A stretch of DNA of 20,000 nt, taken from the IMG/VR virus record IMGVR_UViG_3300025767_000007. One strand, given 5' to 3'. A model generated the notes under the pieces. That model worked only from the letters and a program-made list of their open reading frames with translations, did no database searches and was not told the origin of the DNA. This document shows, piece after piece, positions 3,891-19,863 of this stretch. A program made the position numbers and the translations under genes. Source of the stretch: an uncultured virus (IMG/VR IMGVR_UViG_3300025767_000007) (taxonomy: Duplodnaviria; Heunggongvirae; Uroviricota; Caudoviricetes). The stretch's first letter is position 1, and each line of letters opens with the position of its first letter.

Positions 3891-4109
3891 ATGGCAATAG
3901 AACTAACAGGCAAAGTAAAATGGTTTCAAGACGCAAAAGGATGGGGTTTTATTAAACCTGACGATGGTTCCGATGATGTTTTTGCACACTATTCAGCAAT
4001 TAATTCGGATGGATTTAAATCATTAAAAGAAGGTCAAGCAGTAACATTTGAAGTAATTCAAGGTGCTAAAGGACGTCAAGCCGCCAATATCAATTTAATT
4101 GAATCTTAA
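3891..4109 (+). CDS. cspA: Cold-shock domain protein
   Basis: TGKVKWF, KGWGFI (RNP1), DVFAHYSAI (RNP2), [23 protein letters not shown] upstream. Confidence 0.95.
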
Positions 4110-4242
4110 GACTAACTCTCCATAAATTATAACAATAGTAATCTTAAAGACTAAATAGATTATGGTAGTACATGTATAGGAACATAGAGTAACTATGCAT
4201 ATAACATCTGTTTACAGAAAATAGATAAGGCATTAGAGATTT

Positions 4243-4740
4243 ATGAGTTTAACTGACTTTATCGACAGCAGTATAAGTCGATTCGCAAAATATTATTCTT
4301 GGTTTGCATTACTAATGGTATTGTTCGTTGTGATCAATGTCTTGGGAAGATATTTCTTTGACATTCGTAATGATTATGCAGTTGATTCAACATGGCAATT
4401 ATACGGTATGCTTATTATGTTTGGTTGCAGTTATTCATTAGGAAAAGAAGCACATATTAGAACAGATCTGTTCTGGAACAATTATAAAGATCGTACAAAA
4501 GCAATTATTGACTTTGTAAGTTATCTCTTACTATTCTTTCCTTCATTTGCACTTATCACATACATCAGTTTCAATGATACATCAGCCGCTATTGAGATGA
4601 ACGAACGTAGTTCTGAAACAATGGCTCAGCTTGTCATCTGGCCTATGAAGATTGGTATTACACTTGGCTTGGTACTTTTGATGGTACAAGCATTGAGTCA
4701 AATGATTAAATGTTATAGAAGGATTTTTATCAATGAGTAA
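4243..4740 (+). CDS. dctQ: TRAP transporter small permease subunit
   Basis: 165 aa with four hydrophobic segments and the 'HIRTDLF' motif (H-I-x-x-D of DctQ); overlaps the dctM start. Confidence 0.9.
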   Translation: MSLTDFIDSSISRFAKYYSWFALLMVLFVVINVLGRYFFDIRNDYAVDSTWQLYGMLIMFGCSYSLGKEAHIRTDLFWNNYKDRTKAIIDFVSYLLLFFPSFALITYISFNDTSAAIEMNERSSETMAQLVIWPMKIGITLGLVLLMVQALSQMIKCYRRIFINE

Positions 4741-6127
4741 TGAATGGCTAGCAATGACAATGTTATTTACAATGATTGCCGGCATATTTGTTGGAGTTCC
4801 AGTTAGTTTTACACTAACATTCTTAGCATTAATTTTTGGATTAATTGGATTAGGACTAAGTGTTTTTGATCTTACATATCTTAACCTATTAGGAGGTCTT
4901 TCAGACGAAGTACTAATGAGTATTCCTATGTTTATTCTGATGGGTTACATTGCTGAACGAGCTGGATTGGTAGAAAATTTATTTGAAAGTTTAAAAAAGG
5001 TATTTTCAGGCGTTCCTGGTAACCTATACATTGTTGTTATCTGTATTGCAGTATTAATTAGTTTAGCAACAGGAGTAGTTGGAGCGTCAGTAACATTACT
5101 AGGCATTATGGCCGCTCCAAGCATGATTAAACAAGGATATGATGCTAAACTATCAGCAGGAGTAATAGCAGGAGGCGGGTCTCTTATTATGATTCCTCCA
5201 TCTATTCCCCTTATTGTAATGGCGCCTACTATGAATCTTAATATCATTGACGTATATGCGGCCGCAATGGGACCAGGACTAGCGATTGCATTTATGTATC
5301 TAGTATACGTTATATACCTTATAAAAACAAAGCCAGAGGTAGCACCTATGATGCCTGTGGAAGAAAGAGTAGAAATAGATTACAAGTTAATTCTGTTAAC
5401 ATTATGGCATATTGTGCCATTAGCGTCATTAATTCTTATTACACTAGGATCAATGTTATTTGGACTAGCAACTAGTACAGAAGCTGGTGCATTTGGTGCA
5501 TTTGGTGCTTTATGTTTAGCCGCTATTAACAGAAAATTAACTTTAACAAATATTCAAGAAGCATTACTAAAAACTACTAACACGTCAGCAGTAGTAATGT
5601 TATTAGCAATTACGTCAACTATATTTGGTGCCGTATTTGCTTCCTTGGGTGGTGACAAAGTCATTGTATCGGTACTAACTTCGATGCCTATACCCGGATG
5701 GGCAATAGTTGGAGCGATATTAGTGTTATGTCATATTTTAGGCTGGCCCTTTGAGTGGCCAGTGGTAGTGCTAGTGTTCTTACCAATTTTCTTACCAGTA
5801 TTAATTGATACTGGTGTTGACTTAATTTGGTTTGCGGCCGCTTTGGGTGTTATTTTACAAACAGCATATTTAACACCTCCTGTAGCCTTAACCGGATACT
5901 ACCTAAAACAGGTGGTGCCTTCGTGGGATCTTAAATTAATATTCAAAGCAATGATGCCCTTTATGTATATTCAGGTTATTTGTGTTGTAATATTGTTTAT
6001 TACACCTGGCCTTGCAACATGGTTACCTAATTACCTAGCAGAGCAAAGAAAAAATATAGTACAAGAAGTACTAGATGATGATGTCAAAGGACAGGAAGTC
6101 GACTTCCTAGGTGTCCTTGGACAATAA
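4733..6127 (+). CDS. dctM: TRAP transporter large permease subunit
   Basis: Polytopic membrane protein with 'SIPMFILMG', 'MIPPSIPLIV', 'TEAGAFGA' and 'AYLTPPVA' DctM motifs. Confidence 0.95.
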   Translation: MSNEWLAMTMLFTMIAGIFVGVPVSFTLTFLALIFGLIGLGLSVFDLTYLNLLGGLSDEVLMSIPMFILMGYIAERAGLVENLFESLKKVFSGVPGNLYIVVICIAVLISLATGVVGASVTLLGIMAAPSMIKQGYDAKLSAGVIAGGGSLIMIPPSIPLIVMAPTMNLNIIDVYAAAMGPGLAIAFMYLVYVIYLIKTKPEVAPMMPVEERVEIDYKLILLTLWHIVPLASLILITLGSMLFGLATSTEAGAFGAFGALCLAAINRKLTLTNIQEALLKTTNTSAVVMLLAITSTIFGAVFASLGGDKVIVSVLTSMPIPGWAIVGAILVLCHILGWPFEWPVVVLVFLPIFLPVLIDTGVDLIWFAAALGVILQTAYLTPPVALTGYYLKQVVPSWDLKLIFKAMMPFMYIQVICVVILFITPGLATWLPNYLAEQRKNIVQEVLDDDVKGQEVDFLGVLGQ

Positions 6128-6146
6128 TATTTTGGAGAATAAAAAT

Positions 6147-7241
6147 ATGAAACGTTTCATCGGAGCGGTATTAGCTACCGCAATGTCATTTGGCGTAGTG
6201 GCTTCAGTAGCAACTGCAAATGCCAAAGAACTACAGATTGCATCTAGTTTTGGAGCAATCTCAACTTTTAACGAGCAAGCAAACTTTCTTGCCGAAAGAG
6301 TTAAAGTATTAACTGACGGAAAAATTGATATGAAAATCAGACCTTCCGGCGCATTAGTTCCTTCTTTTAAGGTTCTAGATGCTACGGCGTCAGGTGCAGT
6401 AGATGGTGCATGGACTCAGTCTTATTACTGGGTAGGAAAGTCAAAGACTCTTGCATTGTTTAATAGTCCGTTAGGAGGACCTTACGGTATGGACGGGATT
6501 GATTTCCTAGGTTGGATGTTCCACGGTGGTGGACTTGAATTGTATAACGATTTTTATCAGAATGAGTTAAAAATGGATGTACAGGCACTTCCAGCAATGC
6601 CTACTCAGAATCAGCCATTGGGTTGGTTCCATCGCCCAATTAAAGATCTAGCAGATCTCAAAAACTTTAAATGTCGTCAAACTGGCGCCAACGTAGAACT
6701 TTATGCTCGTATGGGTATGCAGACTATTGGTATGCCAGGTGGTGAGATTATGGCCGCGGCCCAAAAGGGTGTTATTAATTGTGCTGAATTCGTTGGTGGT
6801 TTAGAAGACGAACGTCTTGGATTTCCTACAGTATGGAAATACTACTACTTGAATTCATTGCATGAGCATTCAAATACTGGTGATCTATTGATTAACGGTA
6901 AAGTGTGGCGTTCAATGACTAAGCAACAGCAGACCGCTGTTCGTTCTGCCGCTTATGAGTCATATCTATGGTGGTTAACTGATATTCAAGCAAAGAATGG
7001 TGAGGCACTTGCTAGAATGATCAAAGAGCATGGCGTTAGAGTTATGAAGACTCCAGCAGATATTTTGGTTGCTGAGTTAGAAACTATTGACGAAATGTTA
7101 GCAGAAAATGCCGCAAAGGATCCTTATTTTGCAAAAGTACTTGCTTCTCAGAAAGCATGGGCAAAGAAAGTAGTTCCATTTAAGAACGTAGCATTTACGC
7201 CTTATAACTATGCCGCAGATTACTACTGGAAGAAAAAGTAG
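6147..7241 (+). CDS. dctP: TRAP substrate-binding protein, TakP-like (2-oxoacid/monocarboxylate clade)
   Basis: Start reassigned to ATG 6147 (GGAG at 6134-6137). Signal peptide MKRFIGAVLA...ANA-KE. Motifs 'GALVPSFKVLDA', 'YYWVGK', 'WMFHGGGLELY', 'LGWF', 'PGGEI' are typical of TakP-like DctP. Confidence 0.9.
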   Translation: MKRFIGAVLATAMSFGVVASVATANAKELQIASSFGAISTFNEQANFLAERVKVLTDGKIDMKIRPSGALVPSFKVLDATASGAVDGAWTQSYYWVGKSKTLALFNSPLGGPYGMDGIDFLGWMFHGGGLELYNDFYQNELKMDVQALPAMPTQNQPLGWFHRPIKDLADLKNFKCRQTGANVELYARMGMQTIGMPGGEIMAAAQKGVINCAEFVGGLEDERLGFPTVWKYYYLNSLHEHSNTGDLLINGKVWRSMTKQQQTAVRSAAYESYLWWLTDIQAKNGEALARMIKEHGVRVMKTPADILVAELETIDEMLAENAAKDPYFAKVLASQKAWAKKVVPFKNVAFTPYNYAADYYWKKK

Positions 7242-7261
7242 TTTTAAAAGCATATAACGTT

Positions 7262-7293
7262 AAAAATAGGGTGCTTATGCATCCTATTTTTTT
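7262..7293 (+). terminator. Rho-independent terminator after dctQMP
   Basis: AAAAATAGGGTGC-TTAT-GCATCCTATTTTTTT hairpin with T tract. Confidence 0.85.
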
Positions 7294-7322
7294 GGCTATA
7301 ACTTCTATATTTGTTATAAATG

Positions 7323-7330
7323 TATAAATA
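7323..7330 (+). promoter_or_regulatory. T4-type late promoter
   Basis: Exact TATAAATA, intergenic, between a terminator and the second dctP. Confidence 0.7.
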
Positions 7331-7432
7331 CACTTGGATAGATACGGTTTAATACCTTATCGGAAAAAGCCAGTTTTCTATCTCAATGTTACTTGAAGTA
7401 ATATTGTTTTCTTAAGAAAAAAGGAGTCAATT

Positions 7433-8371
7433 ATGACACAGAAAATTAGATGGGTTCTAGCACATGAGCCAATTGAATTATTTCTAAGAGCGGCAAAAGT
7501 TTTCGCATCAGAAGTTAATGCAAAAGCAGAAGGCGCACTAGATATTGAAGTTATGACAATGAGTGAGTATTCTGCAAAGTATAATAACGGTGTTGTTGTT
7601 ACTAAGCACGAACTTGTTGATATGATTAACAGAGGCGACATTGAAATGTCCCAAACATACACAGTAGACATTGGCGAATATGATCACGAATTCCGTGCAT
7701 TAGATATGCCATTCCTATTTGAGTCACACGACCACGCAACTAAGGTGTTCGAAGGCCCAATCGGTCAGTCACTACTAGACGGATTAACAGAATCAGCTGG
7801 TGTTAAAGGTTTAGCCTTTACATACTCCGGTGGATATAGAATTATTCCTGGACAAGAAGGAATTGATACTATTGAAGATATTAGAGGTCTAAAACTTCGT
7901 ACTTCATTCTCACCTGTTGCTATTGAGACTTTCAAAGCAGTTGGTGCAGACGTAGTTCCTATGGAACTTGAAGAAATGACAGACGCAATCCAAGACAAAG
8001 ATATTCAAGTAGGTGAGTCTACTTACCCACGTATCTATGCATTAGGACAAGACAGAGTTTCTAAGGTTATTAACCACACAGAACACTCATTGTTCTTAAC
8101 AAGCATCCTAATCAACCAAGACTTCTTTGCAACTCTTGGTGAAGAACTACAAGGTATTGTTGTAGACGCCGCTAAAACAGCCGCTAATTACGAACGTGTA
8201 ATCAGCATTGAAGACGTTGCACTTACACAAGCTAAAGCTGAAAGCGATGGCATTGAAGTTCGTAGAATGTCAACAGAAGAAAAAGCTCGTTTCAAAGCCG
8301 CTACTGCTCATGTTTATGACATGTTCCCAGAGTTAGCTGGAACAGTTAAGAAGATCCAAGATACAAAATAA
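7433..8371 (+). CDS. dctP: Second, stand-alone DctP-family solute-binding protein without a signal peptide
   Basis: 'ALDMPFLFESHDHA', 'GVKGLAF', 'GYRII', 'GLKLRT', 'FKAVGADVVPM' DctP motifs; AAGGAG RBS; no hydrophobic N-terminal leader. Confidence 0.88.
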   Translation: MTQKIRWVLAHEPIELFLRAAKVFASEVNAKAEGALDIEVMTMSEYSAKYNNGVVVTKHELVDMINRGDIEMSQTYTVDIGEYDHEFRALDMPFLFESHDHATKVFEGPIGQSLLDGLTESAGVKGLAFTYSGGYRIIPGQEGIDTIEDIRGLKLRTSFSPVAIETFKAVGADVVPMELEEMTDAIQDKDIQVGESTYPRIYALGQDRVSKVINHTEHSLFLTSILINQDFFATLGEELQGIVVDAAKTAANYERVISIEDVALTQAKAESDGIEVRRMSTEEKARFKAATAHVYDMFPELAGTVKKIQDTK

Positions 8372-8391
8372 AATATCTTAGAACTACTATG

Positions 8392-8421
8392 GAAAAGGCG
8401 CTATTTGGCGCCTTTTCTTTT
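8392..8421 (+). terminator. Rho-independent terminator
   Basis: GAAAAGGCGC-TATTTG-GCGCCTTTTC followed by TTTT. Confidence 0.85.
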
Positions 8422-8517: not shown

Positions 8518-9603
8518 ATGCCGGCAAGAAATCATAGAAATTGGTTAAAGAAACCATTAGTAGAATATGTTAGTAGCGAAATATATTCAAGTCAAGAAAT
8601 ATTTGAAGAAGAAATCGAAAGTATTTTCTCAAAGGTGTGGGTACCAGTATGTCACATCAGTGAAATGTATAATAAATTAGATTATCGAACATCTCAGATA
8701 GCAGGCATTAATATTTTAGTTTACAATACCGGAGATGGCGTTAAAGCATATCGTAATTATGGCAGTTGGGCACCTACTGGAACATTGCAAGCACCTATTG
8801 TAACAGTTGAACCACAACTACACAGCGAAGTAAAGCACGGAGGTATGGTATGGGTAACACTTGATCCTAATCCTACACAGAGTGTTGAAGAGTGGACAGC
8901 AGGTGCATTTGATTGCATTGCTGATGCTATTGACACAGAAGAACTAGAAATTTTTCATTATCATAAAGCAATTATTCCTACCAACTACAAACTATGGCAT
9001 GATACTAACAGTGAATTCTATCATGACTTCATGCATTACTTTAATCGTGTAACTGGTTTCAACGATGAGTATTTTGCTAGAAAGAATATTCCCTTTGATA
9101 ACGGGCATGTGAACGTTAGTAGTTTTACTGTAAATTATACAGAGTTTGATAAAGAAGGCGATAGAGGTGAACTAAGTTTTCCTAACTTACCTCCAAACCA
9201 ATGGTATATGGTAGACTTGTTTCCTGGCTTTAACTTTAATTTACGTGGTAGTGCATATCGTTCAGATAGTGTTACGCCACTTGGACCAAATAGTGTACTA
9301 ATAGAGTTTAGAGGATACGGTTTAAAGAAAGATACTCCAGAAGAAAGACAAACTCGTATTAAACATCATAATACTATCTGGGGACCGTTTGGCAGAAACT
9401 TACATGAAGATCTTTTAGGTGTAACCGGGCAAGGAGCATCAATGTCTCCAGGCACAGAGAAAAGAAATATTTTACATGGAAGACATGAAAATAGTACTAT
9501 ACATGATGAAGTTGGTATGCGTCACTACTATGCAGAATGGGGAAAATATATGGAGTTAGATCCTAGTAATCCAATAAAAGAGGTTGACAAAAAGGCCGCA
9601 TAG
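8518..9603 (+). CDS. Ring-hydroxylating (Rieske-type) oxygenase alpha-subunit homolog lacking the Rieske [2Fe-2S] ligands
   Basis: N-terminal 'IYSSQEIFEEEIESIFSKVWVPVCHISE', catalytic-domain 'NYKLWHDTNSEFYHDFMH', 'LFPGF' and 'EDLLGVTGQG'; no CxH...CxxH motif; AGGAG RBS. Confidence 0.82.
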   Translation: MPARNHRNWLKKPLVEYVSSEIYSSQEIFEEEIESIFSKVWVPVCHISEMYNKLDYRTSQIAGINILVYNTGDGVKAYRNYGSWAPTGTLQAPIVTVEPQLHSEVKHGGMVWVTLDPNPTQSVEEWTAGAFDCIADAIDTEELEIFHYHKAIIPTNYKLWHDTNSEFYHDFMHYFNRVTGFNDEYFARKNIPFDNGHVNVSSFTVNYTEFDKEGDRGELSFPNLPPNQWYMVDLFPGFNFNLRGSAYRSDSVTPLGPNSVLIEFRGYGLKKDTPEERQTRIKHHNTIWGPFGRNLHEDLLGVTGQGASMSPGTEKRNILHGRHENSTIHDEVGMRHYYAEWGKYMELDPSNPIKEVDKKAA

Positions 9604-9614
9604 TGTTATAAATA
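9584..9614 (+). promoter_or_regulatory. Composite sigma70-like and late promoter for the tmRNA gene
   Basis: TTGACA 9584-9589, 17-nt spacer, TG-T-TATAAA (9607-9612); the -10 is itself part of TATAAATA (9607-9614). Confidence 0.75.
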
Positions 9615-9619
9615 TAATA

Positions 9620-10049
9620 CAATGGTGAAGCATAACAAACGTTGTACAGGACTCGGGGGCAGTACCCGACGCCTCCACCATAAACACACGAACGAGGAAT
9701 GGAACTATAAACAGTTTTAAAGATAAGTGTAGAATATTTTATATCGTTAAAGGTCATCTTAACGTATCTACACAAACAATAGAAGATTGTTACGATTATT
9801 ATTTTAGAAGAATGTGGAATAATAACGAGTGTTACATATACGAAGAAGGTTTTGAAGAATCGTATCGTGTTTTTATGATGGGGGCGAAATAGGATCGACT
9901 GGCAAGTAGTAGGAATGTGGAGTTGTCCGGATGTAAGCTCGGTTAACGCGAACAAAACGATAATTGCAAACGATAATTTTGCATCTGAGGATTTTGCCCT
10001 AGCGGCTTAGTTACTCTGGGCGGGTACTGCCTGGAAACAGAAGTGCCAC
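9620..10049 (+). ncRNA. ssrA: Circularly permuted two-piece tmRNA, alphaproteobacterial type
   Basis: Acceptor piece has T-arm TCGGG-GGCAGTA-CCCGA (9653-9669) and CGCCTCC-A-CCA (9670-9680). Coding piece starts GGGGGCGAAATAGGATCGAC at 9880 and pairs 7/7 with the acceptor strand including the G3.U Ala determinant. Tag frame 9966-10010 = ANDNFASEDFALAA*. Outer ends are approximate. Confidence 0.95.
9707..9892 (+). CDS. Candidate 61-codon ORF inside the tmRNA intervening segment (non-ATG start, or pseudogene)
   Basis: Stop-free frame (I/M)NSFKDKCRIFYIVKGHLNVSTQTIEDCYDYYFRRMWNNNECYIYEEGFEESYRVFMMGAK*. GAGGA at 9694-9698 precedes ATA at 9707. Confidence 0.45.
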   Translation: MNSFKDKCRIFYIVKGHLNVSTQTIEDCYDYYFRRMWNNNECYIYEEGFEESYRVFMMGAK

Positions 10050-10064
10050 TTAAAGTGAATAACA

Positions 10065-10790
10065 ATGATTGAAAATTTCCATACAAGTGACTTTTTAAGG
10101 ATTCGGTATATGTCTTCTCCGCAAGAACGATCCTCAAATAGAGTACTAATATGGTTTTCTGGAATAGCTGGAGCACTTGGCTCAAAAGCAAGACCAAGTG
10201 GATTTTTTGAAAGTTTAAACATTGATTCAATTATTTGGGTAGATGAGAAAGCACCTTTCTCTTGGGGCAATAGTATAGATATTGAAGAACTTTGTAAAAC
10301 ACTTCTGCCTCTAACAAAAAATAAAGAATTACTATTTTTTGGAAATTCAATGGGAGGTTTTCTAGCAATATTACTTTCTAAGTATCTTAAACCTATAAAG
10401 GTTATTACAATGAATCCTCAATATAGTGTTCATCCTGATATAATATTAGAAAAGAGATGGCGTGATTTTATCAATGTAATTACACAGTTTAAACACAAAG
10501 ATCTGACTAACAGTTTTATTCCTGATACTGATTATGCAATAATGTTTGGCGTTGATGATCAGGACGAAATGCATTTTAAGTTATTCAATACCCACCGTAA
10601 TCTTCCAAATGTACAGATTATTAAATTTTTAGATTACAAAACTAACTTAGATAATGCCGCACATCAGGCAGGGGTATATCTTAATAGACTTGGCATCTTC
10701 CGTGATGTTATTGCAAACTTTTATAATAGTAAATCACTGAAAGAAATTTTTATAAAAAACTCCGTTAGATATACAGGGCTGAAACATTAA
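10065..10790 (+). CDS. Alpha/beta-hydrolase-fold protein
   Basis: Nucleophile elbow GNSMGG (G-x-S-x-G), upstream 'LIWFSG', downstream Asp (GVDDQD) and His (AAHQ) candidates. Confidence 0.75.
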   Translation: MIENFHTSDFLRIRYMSSPQERSSNRVLIWFSGIAGALGSKARPSGFFESLNIDSIIWVDEKAPFSWGNSIDIEELCKTLLPLTKNKELLFFGNSMGGFLAILLSKYLKPIKVITMNPQYSVHPDIILEKRWRDFINVITQFKHKDLTNSFIPDTDYAIMFGVDDQDEMHFKLFNTHRNLPNVQIIKFLDYKTNLDNAAHQAGVYLNRLGIFRDVIANFYNSKSLKEIFIKNSVRYTGLKH

Positions 10791-11346: not shown

Positions 11347-11985
11347 ATGCTATCAACATATGCAAATAAACAAAATACTCATCTTGTAATAGATACAACA
11401 ACTAATGGAATATTAATTGCAGTACATAGCAACGTTGTTGCGAATGCAATATGTTTTAAAATATTGAATACAGAATCAATGTCTATTAGGCTAGTAGATT
11501 TCAATGAGCAAATAAATTCATTGCTTAACCCACAGTTTAATGAGTCTAGTAATTTTATATTAACTAAAGTTGGACATAACTTAACACCTCAATCAACAGC
11601 AAATGTTGGACAACTTGTAAAAAGTACAGATGGCCATGGTCGTTTTGGTGTAGCTAAAATGTCTGAAGTAACAGATGAGTGGATAGCATTAAGAAAGAAA
11701 GCACATAATATCAAAGAAGTTATAGCAAGTAGCGATCTTCGAGTTCTTAGATCAGCAACACCGAGCAAACAGTTCTTTGGAGACACTATTACCTTTCCTT
11801 TTATTAAAAAAGAACTTGATAAATGTAATCCACAGGAAGATCAATACACAGATGCTATTCGAGAATGGGCAAGTATAGTAAATGTTCCTGTAAAAAAAGG
11901 ATTTGAAATGCTATCAGCAGAAAGCAATAATATTACTCATTTGGTTAATAATTCAAGAATATTTTGGAGTAAAAAATGTCTTTAA
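11347..11985 (+). CDS. Hypothetical protein, paralog of 13006..13725
   Basis: Shares N-terminal and C-terminal blocks (ELxKCxPxEDQYTxxxxEWA) with the ORF at 13006. Confidence 0.75.
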   Translation: MLSTYANKQNTHLVIDTTTNGILIAVHSNVVANAICFKILNTESMSIRLVDFNEQINSLLNPQFNESSNFILTKVGHNLTPQSTANVGQLVKSTDGHGRFGVAKMSEVTDEWIALRKKAHNIKEVIASSDLRVLRSATPSKQFFGDTITFPFIKKELDKCNPQEDQYTDAIREWASIVNVPVKKGFEMLSAESNNITHLVNNSRIFWSKKCL

Positions 11986-13013
11986 ATTATGCTTTTAGTA
12001 CTAAATTAAAACATGGCAGTGAATATACTAAGAAAGACATTGCTGTTTTTCGTTCTCTCTATCGTATTGATCCAGATCCATTTTTAGTTGATAGAACTGG
12101 CTCTGTAGTCTTTCCTTTCTCAGAAAACAATTATTTTCCAATGATACAACCGTTATCTAATGTTATGAGTTGGGAAGAATGTACAAAAGAGAGAGTTGAA
12201 GAACTAATATCCTTTGACAAAGAACTTTATGTTATGTGGAGCGGAGGAATAGATAGTACATTAATGCTTTTATCTTTTATGAAATATAGTAATATGAATA
12301 ATGTTACAATAGTTTTAAACATGGACTCAATTAAAGAATATCCTTATTTTTATAAAAGGTTTATAGCTCAATGTAATTATAAATTACTGTCAACTGAACA
12401 ATTAATGAATAATGCATTGCTAAATGACATCAATGGATTAATAGTATCAGCCGAACATGCTGATCAGTTAGTTGGATCTCCTTTGGCTCAGTTACTTGCA
12501 ACAACATCAGGTAGAACAATGCTTGGTCTTCCATTTGATGAAGACAATTTCAGCAAATTTTTAACAAACTTAAATGTTCCAGTACATCATATTGATACAA
12601 TAATGGAACTCTATAACATTAGTATTAAAAACAGTCCTCGTCCAATTAAGAATATGTGGGATCTCTGTTGGTGGCATGGATTTAACTTTAAATGGCAAAC
12701 CATCTACATGAAACTGGCTATTAGAATAAAAAATCCTTTGAATCTTTTAACTTTCTACTCTTCGGTAAACTTTCAAAATACCAGTATACACCAAGAAGGT
12801 AATACACTTGATCTAAAGAAAGTTTTTAAAGATATAATCGTTAATTATACCGAAGATACTGAATACCTAAGAAAAGAAAAATTTGCATCTTCAACATTAT
12901 ATTATGGACTAACCTCTTCGACAGGATTAGACAAAAATTGGAATAAAATTAATGTTGATATGATTGAATACTATAATAAAGATAACACTATAAAGGAAAT
13001 AATGAATGCTTGA
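11976..13013 (+). CDS. PP-loop ATP pyrophosphatase, asparagine-synthetase C-terminal-like
   Basis: 'VMWSGGIDST' PP-loop and 'IVSAEHADQLVG' (compare SGEGADELFG of AsnB); no N-terminal Cys glutaminase domain. Confidence 0.8.
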   Translation: MSLNYAFSTKLKHGSEYTKKDIAVFRSLYRIDPDPFLVDRTGSVVFPFSENNYFPMIQPLSNVMSWEECTKERVEELISFDKELYVMWSGGIDSTLMLLSFMKYSNMNNVTIVLNMDSIKEYPYFYKRFIAQCNYKLLSTEQLMNNALLNDINGLIVSAEHADQLVGSPLAQLLATTSGRTMLGLPFDEDNFSKFLTNLNVPVHHIDTIMELYNISIKNSPRPIKNMWDLCWWHGFNFKWQTIYMKLAIRIKNPLNLLTFYSSVNFQNTSIHQEGNTLDLKKVFKDIIVNYTEDTEYLRKEKFASSTLYYGLTSSTGLDKNWNKINVDMIEYYNKDNTIKEIMNA

Positions 13014-14179: not shown

Positions 14180-14224
14180 GACATAAATATCAGGCATTGA
14201 ATGCAAGAAAGAGAGAGTATACAC

Positions 14225-15085
14225 ATGTCAAAACGTATCCTAATTATGGGATTACCAGGATCTGGAAAAACAACTTTAGCTGAGAAGTTAAAAACTTATA
14301 TAGAGGCAGAAGCCGGTATAAGTTCAGCACCATTAGATAAACAAATTAGAGTAATTGAATCTCCTAAACTAGACGAATATAAATGTACAGTAGATTGGTT
14401 CAACGCAGACGAAATCCGTAAGAAGTTTGACGACTGGGATTTTAGTCATACTGGACGCATTAGACAAAGTATTCGTATGTTTGATTTGTCTCAAGAATCA
14501 AATGCTGATTTTGTTATTTGCGACTTTGTTGCACCGTTAGTAGAAATGAGAAATAATTTTAAAGCAGATTGGACAATTTGGATTGATACAATTAAAGAAG
14601 GTAGATATGAAGATACCAATAAAGCATTTATTGAACCTGAGGTATATGACTTCCGTGTACCAGAACAAGATTGTGAAAAATGGGCTAGATATATTTGCGA
14701 CAGAATTGTAAAAGATGAAAGAAGACCTATGTTTGACTGGAGGAAAGAAACAGTACAGATGCTAGGCCGTTGGCAACCATGGCATGATGGACATCGTGCA
14801 TTATTTGAAAGACTAATTCAACGCACAGGACAGGTTGTAATACAAATTAGAGATGTACAAGGATGGGAAGGTTCTAATCCTTTTGAAATTGATCAAGTTA
14901 AACGTTTTATTAAAGCAGACTTAGATCCATTGTACCAAGGACAATATGAAATTCAGATTGTTCCTAATATTGTACATATTGGCTGGGGTAGAGGTGTAGG
15001 TTATACGTCAGGAGAAGAAACCTTTGACGAATCAGTAACAGAAATTTCTGCAACTAATATTAGAAAAGGAATGGGACTAAAGTAG
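14225..15085 (+). CDS. Adenylylsulfate-kinase-like P-loop domain fused to a HIGH-motif nucleotidyltransferase-like domain
   Basis: 'ILIMGLPGSGKTT' Walker A, 'NADEIR', 'GRIRQ', 'ICDFVAP', then 'MLGRWQPWHDGH' (HxGH). Start set at MSKR (14225). Confidence 0.85.
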   Translation: MSKRILIMGLPGSGKTTLAEKLKTYIEAEAGISSAPLDKQIRVIESPKLDEYKCTVDWFNADEIRKKFDDWDFSHTGRIRQSIRMFDLSQESNADFVICDFVAPLVEMRNNFKADWTIWIDTIKEGRYEDTNKAFIEPEVYDFRVPEQDCEKWARYICDRIVKDERRPMFDWRKETVQMLGRWQPWHDGHRALFERLIQRTGQVVIQIRDVQGWEGSNPFEIDQVKRFIKADLDPLYQGQYEIQIVPNIVHIGWGRGVGYTSGEETFDESVTEISATNIRKGMGLK

Positions 15086-16705: not shown

Positions 16706-17608
16706 ATGAAGATATTACCCTTAGCCACGATCGCAGTATTCGTGGGCATCTTTACGGCGAATGCTGGTGAAAAACTAGCACTTCCGTCTACGGAAGGTGT
16801 AGACATTACAACATATGGTGAAGTCCGAGCATATGTTGAATCATCAACTACAAATGATGTTGATACAGCAATTAAAACATCAGACAGTAAAGTAGGACTA
16901 AAATTTAAGACTAAAGAACCAGTATATGTCTTTGGAGAAATGTCAGCTAATGTTGATCTATCCTCAGACGGAGCAGACGATGTAACAACTCGGTTTGGTT
17001 ATATTGGCGTAGGTACCAATGCATTGGGAGAAATTTCACTTGGACGTACAATGAGCATTATGGATTCATTTGTTGATAAAGCAGATGTGTTTATGGGTGC
17101 AGGAAATCAAGGAGTTCAGAAGACTCCTTTTACTATGAATAACAGTTTGAAGTATACTGGTAGTTTTAGCGGAGTCGATGTTGGCTTTCAAACACAAATG
17201 ACTGATGATGCACAAAACCATGACTTGGATTTATATCAAATTGGTTTAGGCTACAAAGGCATTGGTGTTGCATATGCAAGAGATGAAATTAATTCATCTG
17301 ACTACTATGGCTTGGGTGTTTCTCAAAAGTTTGGAAAAATTGGAGCATATGCTAGTGTGTCGGTATTAGATGATGATACACAAGCAAATGATGCAGTTGG
17401 ATATGAACTTGCTGGTTCATATGATTTAAACGAAAAACTAACACTACAAGGCGGTTGGCAAGATACTGACGTTCAATCAGATGACGGTAACTTGACAATT
17501 GAATCACAGTATAAGATTGCAACTCAATCAGTATTTTTTACTAATATTGATTATGACTTAACAACAGAAGATGCAACTCTTCGAACAGGTCTTAGCTTTA
17601 CATTCTAA
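16706..17608 (+). CDS. Gram-negative outer-membrane porin
   Basis: Signal peptide, 'ITTYGEVRAYV', 'TRFGYIGV...GEISLGR' porin motifs, alternating beta strands, C-terminal 'GLSFTF' BAM signal. Confidence 0.88.
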   Translation: MKILPLATIAVFVGIFTANAGEKLALPSTEGVDITTYGEVRAYVESSTTNDVDTAIKTSDSKVGLKFKTKEPVYVFGEMSANVDLSSDGADDVTTRFGYIGVGTNALGEISLGRTMSIMDSFVDKADVFMGAGNQGVQKTPFTMNNSLKYTGSFSGVDVGFQTQMTDDAQNHDLDLYQIGLGYKGIGVAYARDEINSSDYYGLGVSQKFGKIGAYASVSVLDDDTQANDAVGYELAGSYDLNEKLTLQGGWQDTDVQSDDGNLTIESQYKIATQSVFFTNIDYDLTTEDATLRTGLSFTF

Positions 17609-17673: not shown

Positions 17674-18396
17674 TTGCCACTAATAGAGCAATATCCTAAT
17701 TATAAATTCTTAGAAACCGTGTTTAGACTTGGACACTTAGATAAACTCAAAAAAGCATTTTATGATAGTAAGCCTGTATGGAACCAAAGAGCAACAAAAA
17801 CATTCTTTGCTGATTGCGGCTGGTATAAGTATCCTTATTGTTGTTTCGTTCCTGGTTATGAAGAATTAAATGCTCCAAACGTTATTGGTTTACTGCAATC
17901 TGAGATATACAATGCAACAGTTAACATTGTTAAAGAACTGTGGGTAGCACTATATAAAGAAACTGACGAAGAATGGATGCCTTTCGGAGCAGAACTTAAC
18001 TTAGTATATCCTGGCAGGAAAATTCAACCTCACACAGATAATCATTTCTATAGCAATTATGCAACTAGATGTCATGTTGTATTAGAAACTAATAGTAATG
18101 TAGAATTTACATTTGGAAACAACGAATCACCAACATTTAATGTAGGACATTCTTTTATTTTCAACAATAAAAGAAGGCACGAAATATGCAATTTTGGAAG
18201 CACAAACAGAGTTCATTTAGTAGTAGATTTTTTACCCAAGAACATATTTCCTTATACAGAAAGAACTCTTGCTCCGTTTGGTACTGACAACTCGTGTCAT
18301 ATCATTAATACTATACGTTCAAAAGATCATCCTTTACATAATAAATATGTAGACTATGTTGACGATACACCTATACCTAAAAGAAAAACTATATGA
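17674..18396 (+). CDS. Aspartyl/asparaginyl beta-hydroxylase-like 2OG-Fe(II) oxygenase
   Basis: 'PGRKIQPHTD' (HxD), 'RCHVVLETN', 'FNNKRRHEICNFGSTNRVHLVVD'; TTG start. Confidence 0.85.
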   Translation: MPLIEQYPNYKFLETVFRLGHLDKLKKAFYDSKPVWNQRATKTFFADCGWYKYPYCCFVPGYEELNAPNVIGLLQSEIYNATVNIVKELWVALYKETDEEWMPFGAELNLVYPGRKIQPHTDNHFYSNYATRCHVVLETNSNVEFTFGNNESPTFNVGHSFIFNNKRRHEICNFGSTNRVHLVVDFLPKNIFPYTERTLAPFGTDNSCHIINTIRSKDHPLHNKYVDYVDDTPIPKRKTI

Positions 18397-19052
18397 TTTC
18401 AGACGATGTTAATCAACCTGTTCAGGCACATCCTGAATATTTTATCCCTCTAAATTTAACACTACCTCAAGTAGATATCGAAGCACTTAAAGGCGGCATT
18501 ATTGCTGATTTAAGCGTCAAGCACAAGGATAGCGATAGATTATGGTTTAATACTGCTATCGCATCTGGTAATCCATTAGAAGAAACGCAGAGAGTAGCAA
18601 ATGATTTCTTAGAACAATATAATCTTGAGGCAAGTACTATGGGAATATTTGTTGTTAATGCTAATACATACGATTGGAACATACATTGTGATTCACAACG
18701 TTTAGAAACTCGGCTAAATTTTTATGAATTAACTACTGCTCCGGGCTTAGTTCGCTGGTTTCCGGATACAAACGACGGATATGAAGAGATACATAAAAAC
18801 ATAGAAGGTAATGAATTTGTTGACTATGTATGGCCATGGGTTATACAGTTTAAGCAACAACATAGGGATTGGAGCAAAGTACCACCTGCTATTTGGTCTA
18901 CATCTACTGGTTGTAGTAGTGCGTTAGTTAGGACTAATTTACCACATCATGTAGTACAAGGTGATGGAATTAGGATAACAGTTACCTGTAAGGTTGTAGA
19001 CAAAGAAACAAAGAGTACAGTTGACACATGGAGCAGATTACAACAATGTTAA
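18393..19052 (+). CDS. Probable 2OG-Fe(II)/cupin-fold oxygenase
   Basis: 'IHCD' (HxD), 'RLNF', distal 'VRTNLPHHV' and 'RITVT'; ATGA overlap with the upstream gene. Confidence 0.6.
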   Translation: MISDDVNQPVQAHPEYFIPLNLTLPQVDIEALKGGIIADLSVKHKDSDRLWFNTAIASGNPLEETQRVANDFLEQYNLEASTMGIFVVNANTYDWNIHCDSQRLETRLNFYELTTAPGLVRWFPDTNDGYEEIHKNIEGNEFVDYVWPWVIQFKQQHRDWSKVPPAIWSTSTGCSSALVRTNLPHHVVQGDGIRITVTCKVVDKETKSTVDTWSRLQQC

Positions 19053-19480
19053 AAAGAGTTACAAACTTAACTTATGGCATGGCCGAAGAGTTAAAGAAAG
19101 ATCCTGTTAGGCCGAATATTACGCCTTCAAGGAGAATTGGAAAAAACAAAGATATTTTCTACGAGTTATCTGATGAAGGAAATATTGATGCAGTAATTTG
19201 TGTTACCTATACAAATGATGTACCTACTGATGAATCAAATTTATTTGATATGCCAGGTAAAGACGTTGCTATTTTTTATAGTGTCTGGAGTAACAAGGCC
19301 GGTGCTGGACGCAAGATAATCTTTGATACAGTCGATGTAATAACAAATGAAAATAAAAATATACAACGTTTTGTAACACTAAGCCCAAACACTAAAATAG
19401 CAGAAAGATTTCATCTAAGAAACGGAGCAATAGTATTCCGTACCAATGACAATACTGTAAATTATGAGTATTTAAAGTAA
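19046..19480 (+). CDS. Hypothetical phage protein, possibly GNAT-like fold
   Basis: 'IFYSVWSNKAGAGRKII' and 'AERFHLRNGA' resemble GNAT motifs A and B. Start is 19046 (GGAG upstream) or 19028. Confidence 0.55.
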   Translation: MLKRVTNLTYGMAEELKKDPVRPNITPSRRIGKNKDIFYELSDEGNIDAVICVTYTNDVPTDESNLFDMPGKDVAIFYSVWSNKAGAGRKIIFDTVDVITNENKNIQRFVTLSPNTKIAERFHLRNGAIVFRTNDNTVNYEYLK

Positions 19481-19788: not shown

Positions 19789-19863
19789 GCCGCCTTGGCC
19801 CAACGGTAAGGCAACTGATTTGTAATCAGTAGATTGGGAGTTCGATTCTCTCAGGCGGCACCA
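19789..19863 (+). tRNA. tRNA-Thr (anticodon UGU)
   Basis: Acceptor GCCGCCT/AGGCGGC-A-CCA, anticodon arm ACTGA-TTTGTAA-TCAGT, T arm GGGAG-TTCGATT-CTCTC; CCA is encoded. Confidence 0.97.

Follow-up and report, generated by a model that had tools for sequence, protein, structure and literature searches.

Single-component uptake genes are known from phages, such as those for the phosphate-binding protein PstS of cyanophages and the nicotinamide-riboside transporter PnuC of Vibrio phage KVP40. To our knowledge, the uptake genes described in phages are all either single subunits that need host partners or single-protein carriers. The subject of this report is a complete dctQ-dctM-dctP cassette for a transporter of the tripartite ATP-independent periplasmic (TRAP) type in a 20,000-nucleotide stretch of DNA (hereafter the window) from an uncultured virus of the Caudoviricetes (IMG/VR record IMGVR_UViG_3300025767_000007). 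It resembles pstS and pnuC in being phage-borne and, as is thought of those genes, would raise nutrient uptake by the infected cell; it differs in that the phage encodes the binding protein together with both membrane subunits. We consider it probable, at roughly 0.7, that the cassette is a working phage-encoded TRAP importer, which suggests that the virus equips the infected host with a nutrient importer of its own.

The closest described systems are cellular. TakP of Rhodobacter sphaeroides binds 2-oxo acids (structures 2hzk and 2hzl), and PMC1839085 describes its sodium-pyruvate as held by Y100, Q156, R177, E214, W215 (main chain) and E240. Membrane subunits have been solved for SiaPQM (7qha, 7qe5, 8thi) and for the isethionate DctMQ (9pym); PMC9971032 names the sodium-site residues of Photobacterium SiaM and reports that its twin-proline motifs are required for transport. 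In marine SAR11 populations, according to PMC12379486, TRAP cassettes are gained, lost and swapped, and Pelagibacter carries DctPQM paralogues in flexible islands. The copies described there are cellular, whereas for the phage clade reported below our searches gave no cellular DctP closer than about 55% identity; the link to Pelagibacter is that pelagimyophages provide the closest matches to the capsids of some of the phages with the cassette.

The cassette and its functional residues

Open reading frame (ORF) calling gave 27 plausible genes in the window, mainly on the + strand. The cassette consists of the following features:

4243-4740, + strand: dctQ, small membrane subunit, 165 aa (PF04290, E 1.2e-20, 74.2 bits against a cut-off of 28.3)
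4733-6127, + strand: dctM, large permease subunit, 464 aa (PF06808, E 1.8e-59, 202.1 bits)
6147-7241, + strand: dctP, TakP-type periplasmic substrate-binding protein (DctP1), 364 aa (PF03480, E 1.9e-32, 113.2 bits)
6147-6224, + strand: Sec-type signal peptide of DctP1, 26 residues, ANA before KE (from sequence and hydropathy)

The three genes are adjacent, co-oriented and intact, with an overlap of 8 nt between dctQ and dctM, and all exceed their Pfam cut-offs, which bears out the description of three intact, closely packed genes in an earlier note on this DNA. DctQ, DctM and a DctP-family binding protein are encoded together, with Q and M as separate genes as in Photobacterium. DctQ has three strongly hydrophobic segments at the threshold used, and DctP1 is also matched by the NCBIfam model NF037995 (55 bits, cut-off 50). 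A fourth TRAP-family gene, encoding a second DctP (7433-8371), lies just beyond the block delimited in the earlier note.

The dctP ORF opens at a GTG at 6111; an alternative ATG lies at 6147, which is also where the 12 inspected orthologue ORFs of DctP1 begin in alignment. We took 6147 as the start because this ATG gives a signal-peptide-like N-terminus and matches the orthologue starts. The N-terminus then reads MKRFIGAVLATAMSFGVVASVATANA, in which a charged beginning is followed by a hydrophobic core and the cut site ANA, and residues 4-22 form the single N-terminal hydrophobic segment of the protein. Signal-peptide-like N-termini, as judged by eye and hydropathy, are present in all 12 inspected orthologue ORFs, their sequences having diverged.

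The best solved relatives of DctP1 are the ketoacid-binding protein 7ug8 (E 6.3e-43) and TakP 2hzk (E 4.8e-42), and the alignment reaches residue 352 of the 365 of TakP, into the long C-terminal extension; TakP forms a dimer whose two subunits swap their long C-terminal helix. Residues Y94, Q156, R177, E214 and E240 of DctP1 correspond to Y100, Q156, R177, E214 and E240 of TakP, so that five of the six residues of the sodium-pyruvate site are identical, the sixth being W215 with its main-chain contact; this comparison is by sequence alignment, and DctP1, in contrast to TakP, is phage-encoded. All five are invariant in 26 of 26 sequences, including R177, the counterpart of the TakP arginine that pairs with the carboxylate. 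The assignment to the TakP clade, made earlier from the sequence alone, agrees with these relatives and with the five identical residues.

DctM aligns end to end with the solved SiaM/SiaQM and isethionate DctMQ chains, although at E values of only 1e-21 to 1e-25 and with a different substrate class. It keeps the Ser/Thr residues of Na1 and Na2 and both twin-proline motifs: S110, T113, P155-P156, G337, T381 and P382-P383 align with S103, S106, P149-P150, G325, T369 and P370-P371 of 7qha_B. The same phage residues, together with E341, are invariant in all 23 viral DctM sequences. Loss of conserved Na+ or substrate-site residues, which the earlier note had named as something that would speak against transport, is not seen at the DctM positions just listed (23/23) or at the five DctP1 positions (26/26).

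Purifying selection acts on all of these genes. The ratio of nonsynonymous to synonymous divergence (dN/dS), computed against relatives with unsaturated synonymous divergence, is 0.05-0.08 for dctQ, 0.05-0.08 for dctM, 0.05-0.17 for dctP1 and 0.11-0.19 for the gene of the second DctP (DctP2).

Viral setting and relationship to cellular TRAP genes

The placement of the block in a phage genome, as had been claimed earlier, is confirmed by a virus record (G001; 244,432 bp, 74% complete by the estimate of the collection) that is 97% identical to positions 4100-8400 of the window (4301 bases). This single contig carries a Gp23-type capsid gene at 47.9 kb (E 6.2e-98), a terminase gene at 77 kb and the TRAP block at 110 kb. 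Its capsid protein has its closest counterparts in jumbo phages of the PA5oct type, at 62-66% identity to those of Phosso, PA5oct, Vibrio phage 2.275.O and 121Q, and its TerL is 49% identical to that of PA5oct. The search for terminase and capsid genes that the earlier note had proposed was extended to five further TRAP-bearing records, four of which have both Gp23-type capsid and terminase matches; capsid, terminase and TRAP genes thus occur on one contig in five of six records (G001, G002, G004, G005 and G006).

A scan of the viral collection with DctM gave 28 pattern matches, of which 24 encode a DctM relative, and the Q-M-P order is the same in every one of these 24 loci that reaches far enough. 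In eight of them DctM is 96-100% identical to that of the window, and those that reach upstream repeat the window's gene order from nrdB to beyond the TRAP block. The remaining 16 are more distant (DctM 64-73%, DctP1 72-82% and DctQ 52-61% identity) and have different neighbours. The recurrence of this gene order on eight viral contigs with near-identical DctM excludes an assembly chimera as the source of the block. The upstream neighbours in the window are:

74-850: nrdB, upstream of the cassette
1188-1472: PAAR-like gene (Pfam 20.6 bits, under the cut-off of 27; phrog_281, E 5.8e-8)
3891-4109: cold-shock gene, upstream of dctQ

The nrdB and PAAR genes had been pointed out before as lying near the cassette; both are found, and the cold-shock gene is to be added to them.

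The cassette is not confined to one kind of phage. In G002 (154 kb) and G004 (89 kb) the capsid protein shares only 35-37% identity with that of G001 and 67-75% with that of pelagimyophage Mosig, OM43 phage Melnitz and HTVC008M coming next, yet the DctP1 proteins of these two records are 75-82% identical to DctP1 of the window. Two very different myovirus lineages therefore carry the same cassette.

A search of 5.8 billion proteins with DctP1 returned 29 clusters at 70-95% identity, one at 60% and the rest at or below 52%. Every one of these 29 has a counterpart at 76-100% identity among the viral loci found here, and the few named relatives at or below 52% come from Burkholderiales metagenome-assembled genomes. 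DctM shows a similar step (62-96%, one cluster at 57%, then 51% or less). A phylogeny of the subunits had been suggested as a check in the earlier note; in a maximum-likelihood tree with 150 rows, with support from the Shimodaira-Hasegawa-like approximate likelihood ratio test (SH-aLRT), the viral loci and the 70-95% clusters form one group of their own (54 rows, SH-aLRT 97-99), within which the group of the window is nested in that of the pelagimyophage-like phages. The 60% cluster is sister to the viral group, and 90 rows at about 50% identity lie across a branch with support of 98. The best DctP1 match in 401 sampled Alphaproteobacteria has 50% identity, and a peptide scan of the genomes of 185,579 species, an exact-peptide method that finds only near copies, gave only eight loci at 32-36%. 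The nearest cellular relatives of DctP1 are thus at about 50-55% identity or less.

We also noticed that the contigs of the 60% cluster (P0034: L039, L040 and L044) carry QMP among many ORFs without a family, together with a T5orf172/endonuclease-like ORF, a ClpP-type protease gene and a radical SAM gene. They are probably, if unproven, of phage origin.

As a transporter this is an ordinary TRAP-family member; the novelty lies in phages carrying the complete system and having kept it as their own lineage. No description of a phage-encoded TRAP system was found in full-text literature searches. The word TRAP is absent from the main texts (supplements not covered) of PMC7029224, on pelagimyophages, and of PMC9123017 and PMC12619734, on marine and aquatic jumbo phages, and in PMC10507020 both terms occur, but in unrelated passages. 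A tblastn search of DctM, DctP1 and DctP2 against 50,697 deposited phage records gave no real homologue, the matches being to short unannotated or really bacterial records only, at 21-27% identity, and PHROGs holds no family for DctQ, DctM or DctP1. The description of the module as unusual for a phage, given earlier, is upheld by these two results.

Taken as a working importer, the cassette would act as follows. During infection of a host that is Gram-negative and probably alphaproteobacterial, DctQ and DctM would become inserted in the inner membrane, and the Sec signal peptide would export DctP1 to the periplasm. There DctP1 would bind a sodium ion along with a small monocarboxylate, the likeliest ligand being a 2-oxo acid such as pyruvate, and would pass the ligand to DctQM, which would move it inward on the sodium gradient by an elevator mechanism as in SiaQM. 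Once imported, the acid could enter the infected cell's carbon and energy metabolism, as an extra supply where the water is poor in nutrients. On this reading the cassette is an old set of genes that viruses have maintained; at least two unrelated lineages of myoviruses share it, and it does not stem from a recent host capture. A complete secondary transporter kept in at least two unrelated marine myovirus groups, one of them related to phages of SAR11-type bacteria, would mean, if it works as proposed, that infected marine cells import small organic acids, e.g., pyruvate, via viral proteins, which bears on how viruses redirect the flow of labile dissolved carbon.

Putative transcription signals, signal-less DctP proteins and alternative explanations

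Three features are relevant to the expression of the cassette and of the DctP2 gene behind it:

4152-4157, + strand: TAAATA motif, possible promoter element, in the 133-nt spacer before dctQ
7262-7293, + strand: hairpin and T-run after dctP, likely intrinsic terminator (from fold and conservation)
7323-7330, + strand: TATAAATA before the DctP2 gene, with a sigma-70-like pair (TTGGCT, 17 nt, TATAAA) just upstream

TAAATA is rarer in the window than expected by chance, with 16 matches on both strands against 41.9 in shuffles. Its placement is nevertheless not random: eight of the nine + strand copies fall in the intergenic part of the window, which makes up 11.5% of it, and stand upstream of + strand genes. 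The box before dctQ reads CTAAATAG and lies 91 nt from the ATG; the full TATAAATA is present in the dctQ spacer of two relatives (L006 and L026), the spacer being otherwise poorly conserved. The copies before the tmRNA gene (see below) and before DctP2 fall within sigma-70-like -35/-10 pairs. A T4-type late promoter, that is, the full eight-base box TATAAATA with a mapped start, is not found before dctQ, and the RNA-library contigs show no start there. Of the late-promoter core proposed earlier at 4152-4157, the motif itself stands and a promoter role for it is plausible, but "late" is not established, because the box reads CTAAATAG and two other copies sit in sigma-70-like pairs.

The terminator that had been assigned to the cassette is upheld by its fold energy and by its conservation. 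The hairpin (7262-7291) has 13 pairs and a folding energy of -17.5 kcal/mol (z = -3.68), only one of 200 shuffles folding as well, and it is the same except for one loop base in the four relatives aligned (L001, L005, L006 and L009). A scan for consensus terminators gave three sites against 3.5 expected, and this hairpin is not among them.

All or part of the stretch is contained in 20 of 24 listed runs from 17 studies, one of them possibly the source; six are RNA libraries, and two "viral metagenome" runs contain 0.60-0.61 of its words. The RNA evidence consists of assembled contigs from four metatranscriptomic runs (X4, X16, X18 and X19) of four studies. In X4, X16 and X18 a single piece extends from 5567/5568 to 7070-7253, covering the 3' part of dctM and dctP, and in X19 three shorter pieces cover the same span; one contig ends at 7253, close to the hairpin. 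DctP2 pieces are present in all four runs, with starts at 7345-7461 and ends at 8360-8395, and in three of the four the start is at 7345-7363, near the TATAAATA before DctP2. Other pieces are likewise delimited by single genes, namely the cold-shock gene, the ORF o10901, a helix-turn-helix gene and the porin gene.

The contigs of three RNA libraries, from three studies, share the start at 5567/5568 within dctM, and no promoter-like motif is found upstream of it. This hints weakly at an internal 5' end, which would favour dctP mRNA; the assembly may instead have broken here, at a variable stretch.

Behind the cassette, two further genes have to be introduced:

7433-8371, + strand: DctP2, DctP-family protein, 312 aa (PF03480, E 2.2e-51, 175.4 bits; phrog_31178, E 2.1e-34)
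11976-13013, + strand: PP-loop ATPase-like gene with an SGGxDST PP-loop, of a family that adjoins DctP2-type genes downstream

DctP2 has its own strong ribosome-binding site, no in-frame start upstream and no hydrophobic segment, and its start coincides in alignment with that of mature SiaP; judged by these features it lacks a signal peptide. All 23 relatives compared retain R156, which corresponds to the arginine by which DctP proteins bind the carboxylate. Homologues at 65-75% identity are numerous, and those inspected have no signal peptide either; distant representatives (36-47%) include forms both with and without one, which makes it probable that the phage form descends from a periplasmic protein that lost its leader. 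At E <= 1e-40 neither 401 sampled Alphaproteobacteria nor 400 sampled Gammaproteobacteria gave a DctP2 match, in a search that included no positive-control genome. Relatives are encoded in 199 stretches of the viral collection, mostly without QM, and a DctP family without signal peptide is thus widespread in phages. In the 80 of these loci that were kept for neighbourhood counts (L046-L125), QM occurs within 6 kb in only seven, all of the lineage of the window, and the neighbours include a tail sheath gene, a DnaB-like helicase gene, a RecA-like gene and MazG. A gene for a small DUF2061 membrane protein stands at -1 of the DctP2-type gene in 21 of the 80.

Signal-less DctP genes also occur in the group with 64-73% DctM identity: L020 and L022 have a 43%-identical paralogue immediately behind dctP, and L017 and L018 have a DctP3-type gene. 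A third signal-less DctP (about 360 aa, 33% identical to DctP2) lies between the o3403 and cold-shock genes of relatives (L005 6156-7235, L006 7919-9025, and L026); the window lacks it between 3801 and 3891. In L024, a match to the "freshwater-2" RNA motif (2754-2832, 67.3 bits) follows just after the relative's DctP2; in the window none reaches the gathering score.

The PP-loop family is the commonest downstream neighbour of the DctP2 type, at +1 in 30 and at +2 in 15 of the 80 loci. Its SGGxDST motif is invariant in 24 of 24 sequences, its profile matches LarE, GMP synthase, nitrile synthetase and QueC at the PP-loop only (E 5e-4), and its nearest protein-atlas clusters are 78-100% viral. 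Arrays of this family (three to five matches) with a kinase homologue stand directly upstream of dctQ in L020, L021 and L022.

Several findings weigh against a working importer. Four positions of the reference sodium sites differ, Na1 G145 and V148 and Na2 G366 and M372 being replaced by I152, I154, A378 and V384 in the phage protein; these are backbone contacts, and for that reason the differences neither support nor refute transport. W215 of TakP is F215 in DctP1, the position being F in 25 and Y in one of the 26 sequences. In NCBIfam, DctM falls under the cut-off of TIGR00786 (208.8 against 268.45) and DctP1 under that of TIGR00787 (32.7 against 175.05), and DctQ matches no model. One of the TRAP-bearing records, G003 (228 kb), has neither capsid nor terminase with the queries used. 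Were the motif before dctQ a late promoter after all, the importer would pay off little unless the latent period is long. As to the RNA libraries, the gene-bounded pieces are the pattern that transcripts would give, but contigs cannot prove transcription or its ends, and DNA was possibly present; dctQ and dctM's 5' two thirds reach a depth of only 0-2.3 in all four runs, although contigs cannot show absence either.

Only one rival carries real weight: rather than mainly providing bulk carbon or energy, the importer would serve a pathway specific to the phage. In it the acid would be bound by cytoplasmic, signal-less DctPs and activated by the phage-only PP-loop ATPases, e.g., by carboxylate adenylation, and the end product, perhaps a modified nucleotide or a cofactor, would be formed in infected cells alone. 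In its favour, signal-less DctP genes adjoin or lie near QMP in both phage lineages, PP-loop genes closely precede QMP in L020-L023 (L021 with up to five matches) and follow it in the window, the family recurs at +1 and +2 of the DctP2 type with the frequencies given above, and both SGGxDST (24/24) and R156 of DctP2 (23/23) are invariant. Against it, 73 of the 80 DctP2-family loci have no QM within 6 kb, so that the binding protein can do without this importer; in the available DNA, a DctP2-like gene is missing from most of the distant group's QMP loci, and gene neighbourhood in hypervariable phage islands is weak as evidence. We regard such a pathway as unlikely, though deserving to be kept in view, and give no better odds to the fuller reading that TRAP importer, signal-less DctP acid carriers or traps and a PP-loop ATPase activating the bound carboxylate form a virus-only module. 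If this were true, a periplasmic binding fold would have been reused as a soluble cytoplasmic enzyme partner, which would be a new role for the DctP family.

The other explanations fare worse than an importer that serves the infected cell. It is quite improbable that these are passenger genes, host DNA that was picked up and drifts unused or is kept as harmless. The variability of the island, in which the genes for DctP3, the Rieske oxygenase and the hydrolase are present or absent among relatives, would suit this, as would the very low RNA-library depth over dctQ and 5' dctM, but it is hard to reconcile with dN/dS of 0.05-0.19, with invariant functional residues, with Q, M and P being intact at 52-82% identity in every locus that reaches them, or with signal peptides that are kept while their sequence drifts, no cellular relative standing above about 55%. 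A role in the envelope with transport lost, e.g., a block to superinfection or an altered exposure of receptors, appears highly improbable: a gene of the same island (16706-17608) specifies an outer-membrane porin that has a signal peptide, a hint of envelope remodelling, but exclusion alone would not need the conservation of three subunits and of the tested transport-site residues. That the block is cellular, by way of an assembly chimera or of a bacterial island misfiled as viral, we consider extremely improbable. The window itself holds no structural phage gene, G003 gave no capsid or terminase match, and the 60% relative (L040) has surroundings that are only weakly phage-like; on the other side, several separate viral contigs repeat the junctions between nrdB, PAAR, cold-shock, QMP and DctP2 genes, the flanking genes belong to phage families, five of six records join capsid, terminase and TRAP on one contig, and the stretch occurs in 20 listed runs of 17 studies, one of them possibly the source.

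The tmRNA and other genes of the window

A transfer-messenger RNA (tmRNA) gene lies 1.2 kb downstream of DctP2, with a TTGACA-17-TATAAT promoter in front:

9580-10050, + strand: two-piece (permuted) tmRNA of alphaproteobacterial type (RF01849, 101.3 bits; RF04321, 105.9 bits)

Its tag reads ANDNFASEDFALAA. The gene is kept in all four relatives searched (L005, L006, L009 and L024), the copy in the window having about 170 extra bases in the intervening segment, and RNA-library contigs have loose ends at it (9681-10006). The type of this tmRNA, together with a cassette shared with pelagimyophage-like phages, points to a marine alphaproteobacterium as the probable host.

Several other genes were annotated. 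The ORF at 8518-9603 encodes the alpha subunit of a Rieske-type ring-hydroxylating oxygenase, its catalytic domain matching Pfam and its N-terminus weakly matching Rieske regions, and an alpha/beta-hydrolase-like gene is located at 10065-10790; these two are found only in the closest relatives of the window and are absent from L006-L008. The product of 14201-15085 has two domains, an N-terminal P-loop kinase-like one and a C-terminal one with weak nicotinamide-nucleotide adenylyltransferase matches (phrog_10255, "kinase"), and is possibly an enzyme of NAD-salvage type. The porin gene at 16706-17608 encodes a Gram-negative porin (Porin_4, E 1.2e-20), and an RNA-library contig covers 16642-17587. 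It is followed, in the same variable island, by a gene for an Asp/Arg beta-hydroxylase-like 2-oxoglutarate oxygenase (17674-18396) and by a short ORF (19028-19480) that weakly matches malonyl-CoA decarboxylase (C-terminal domain). A tRNA-Thr (TGT) gene is located at 19789-19863, and the RNA-library depth in that bin is high in run X16.

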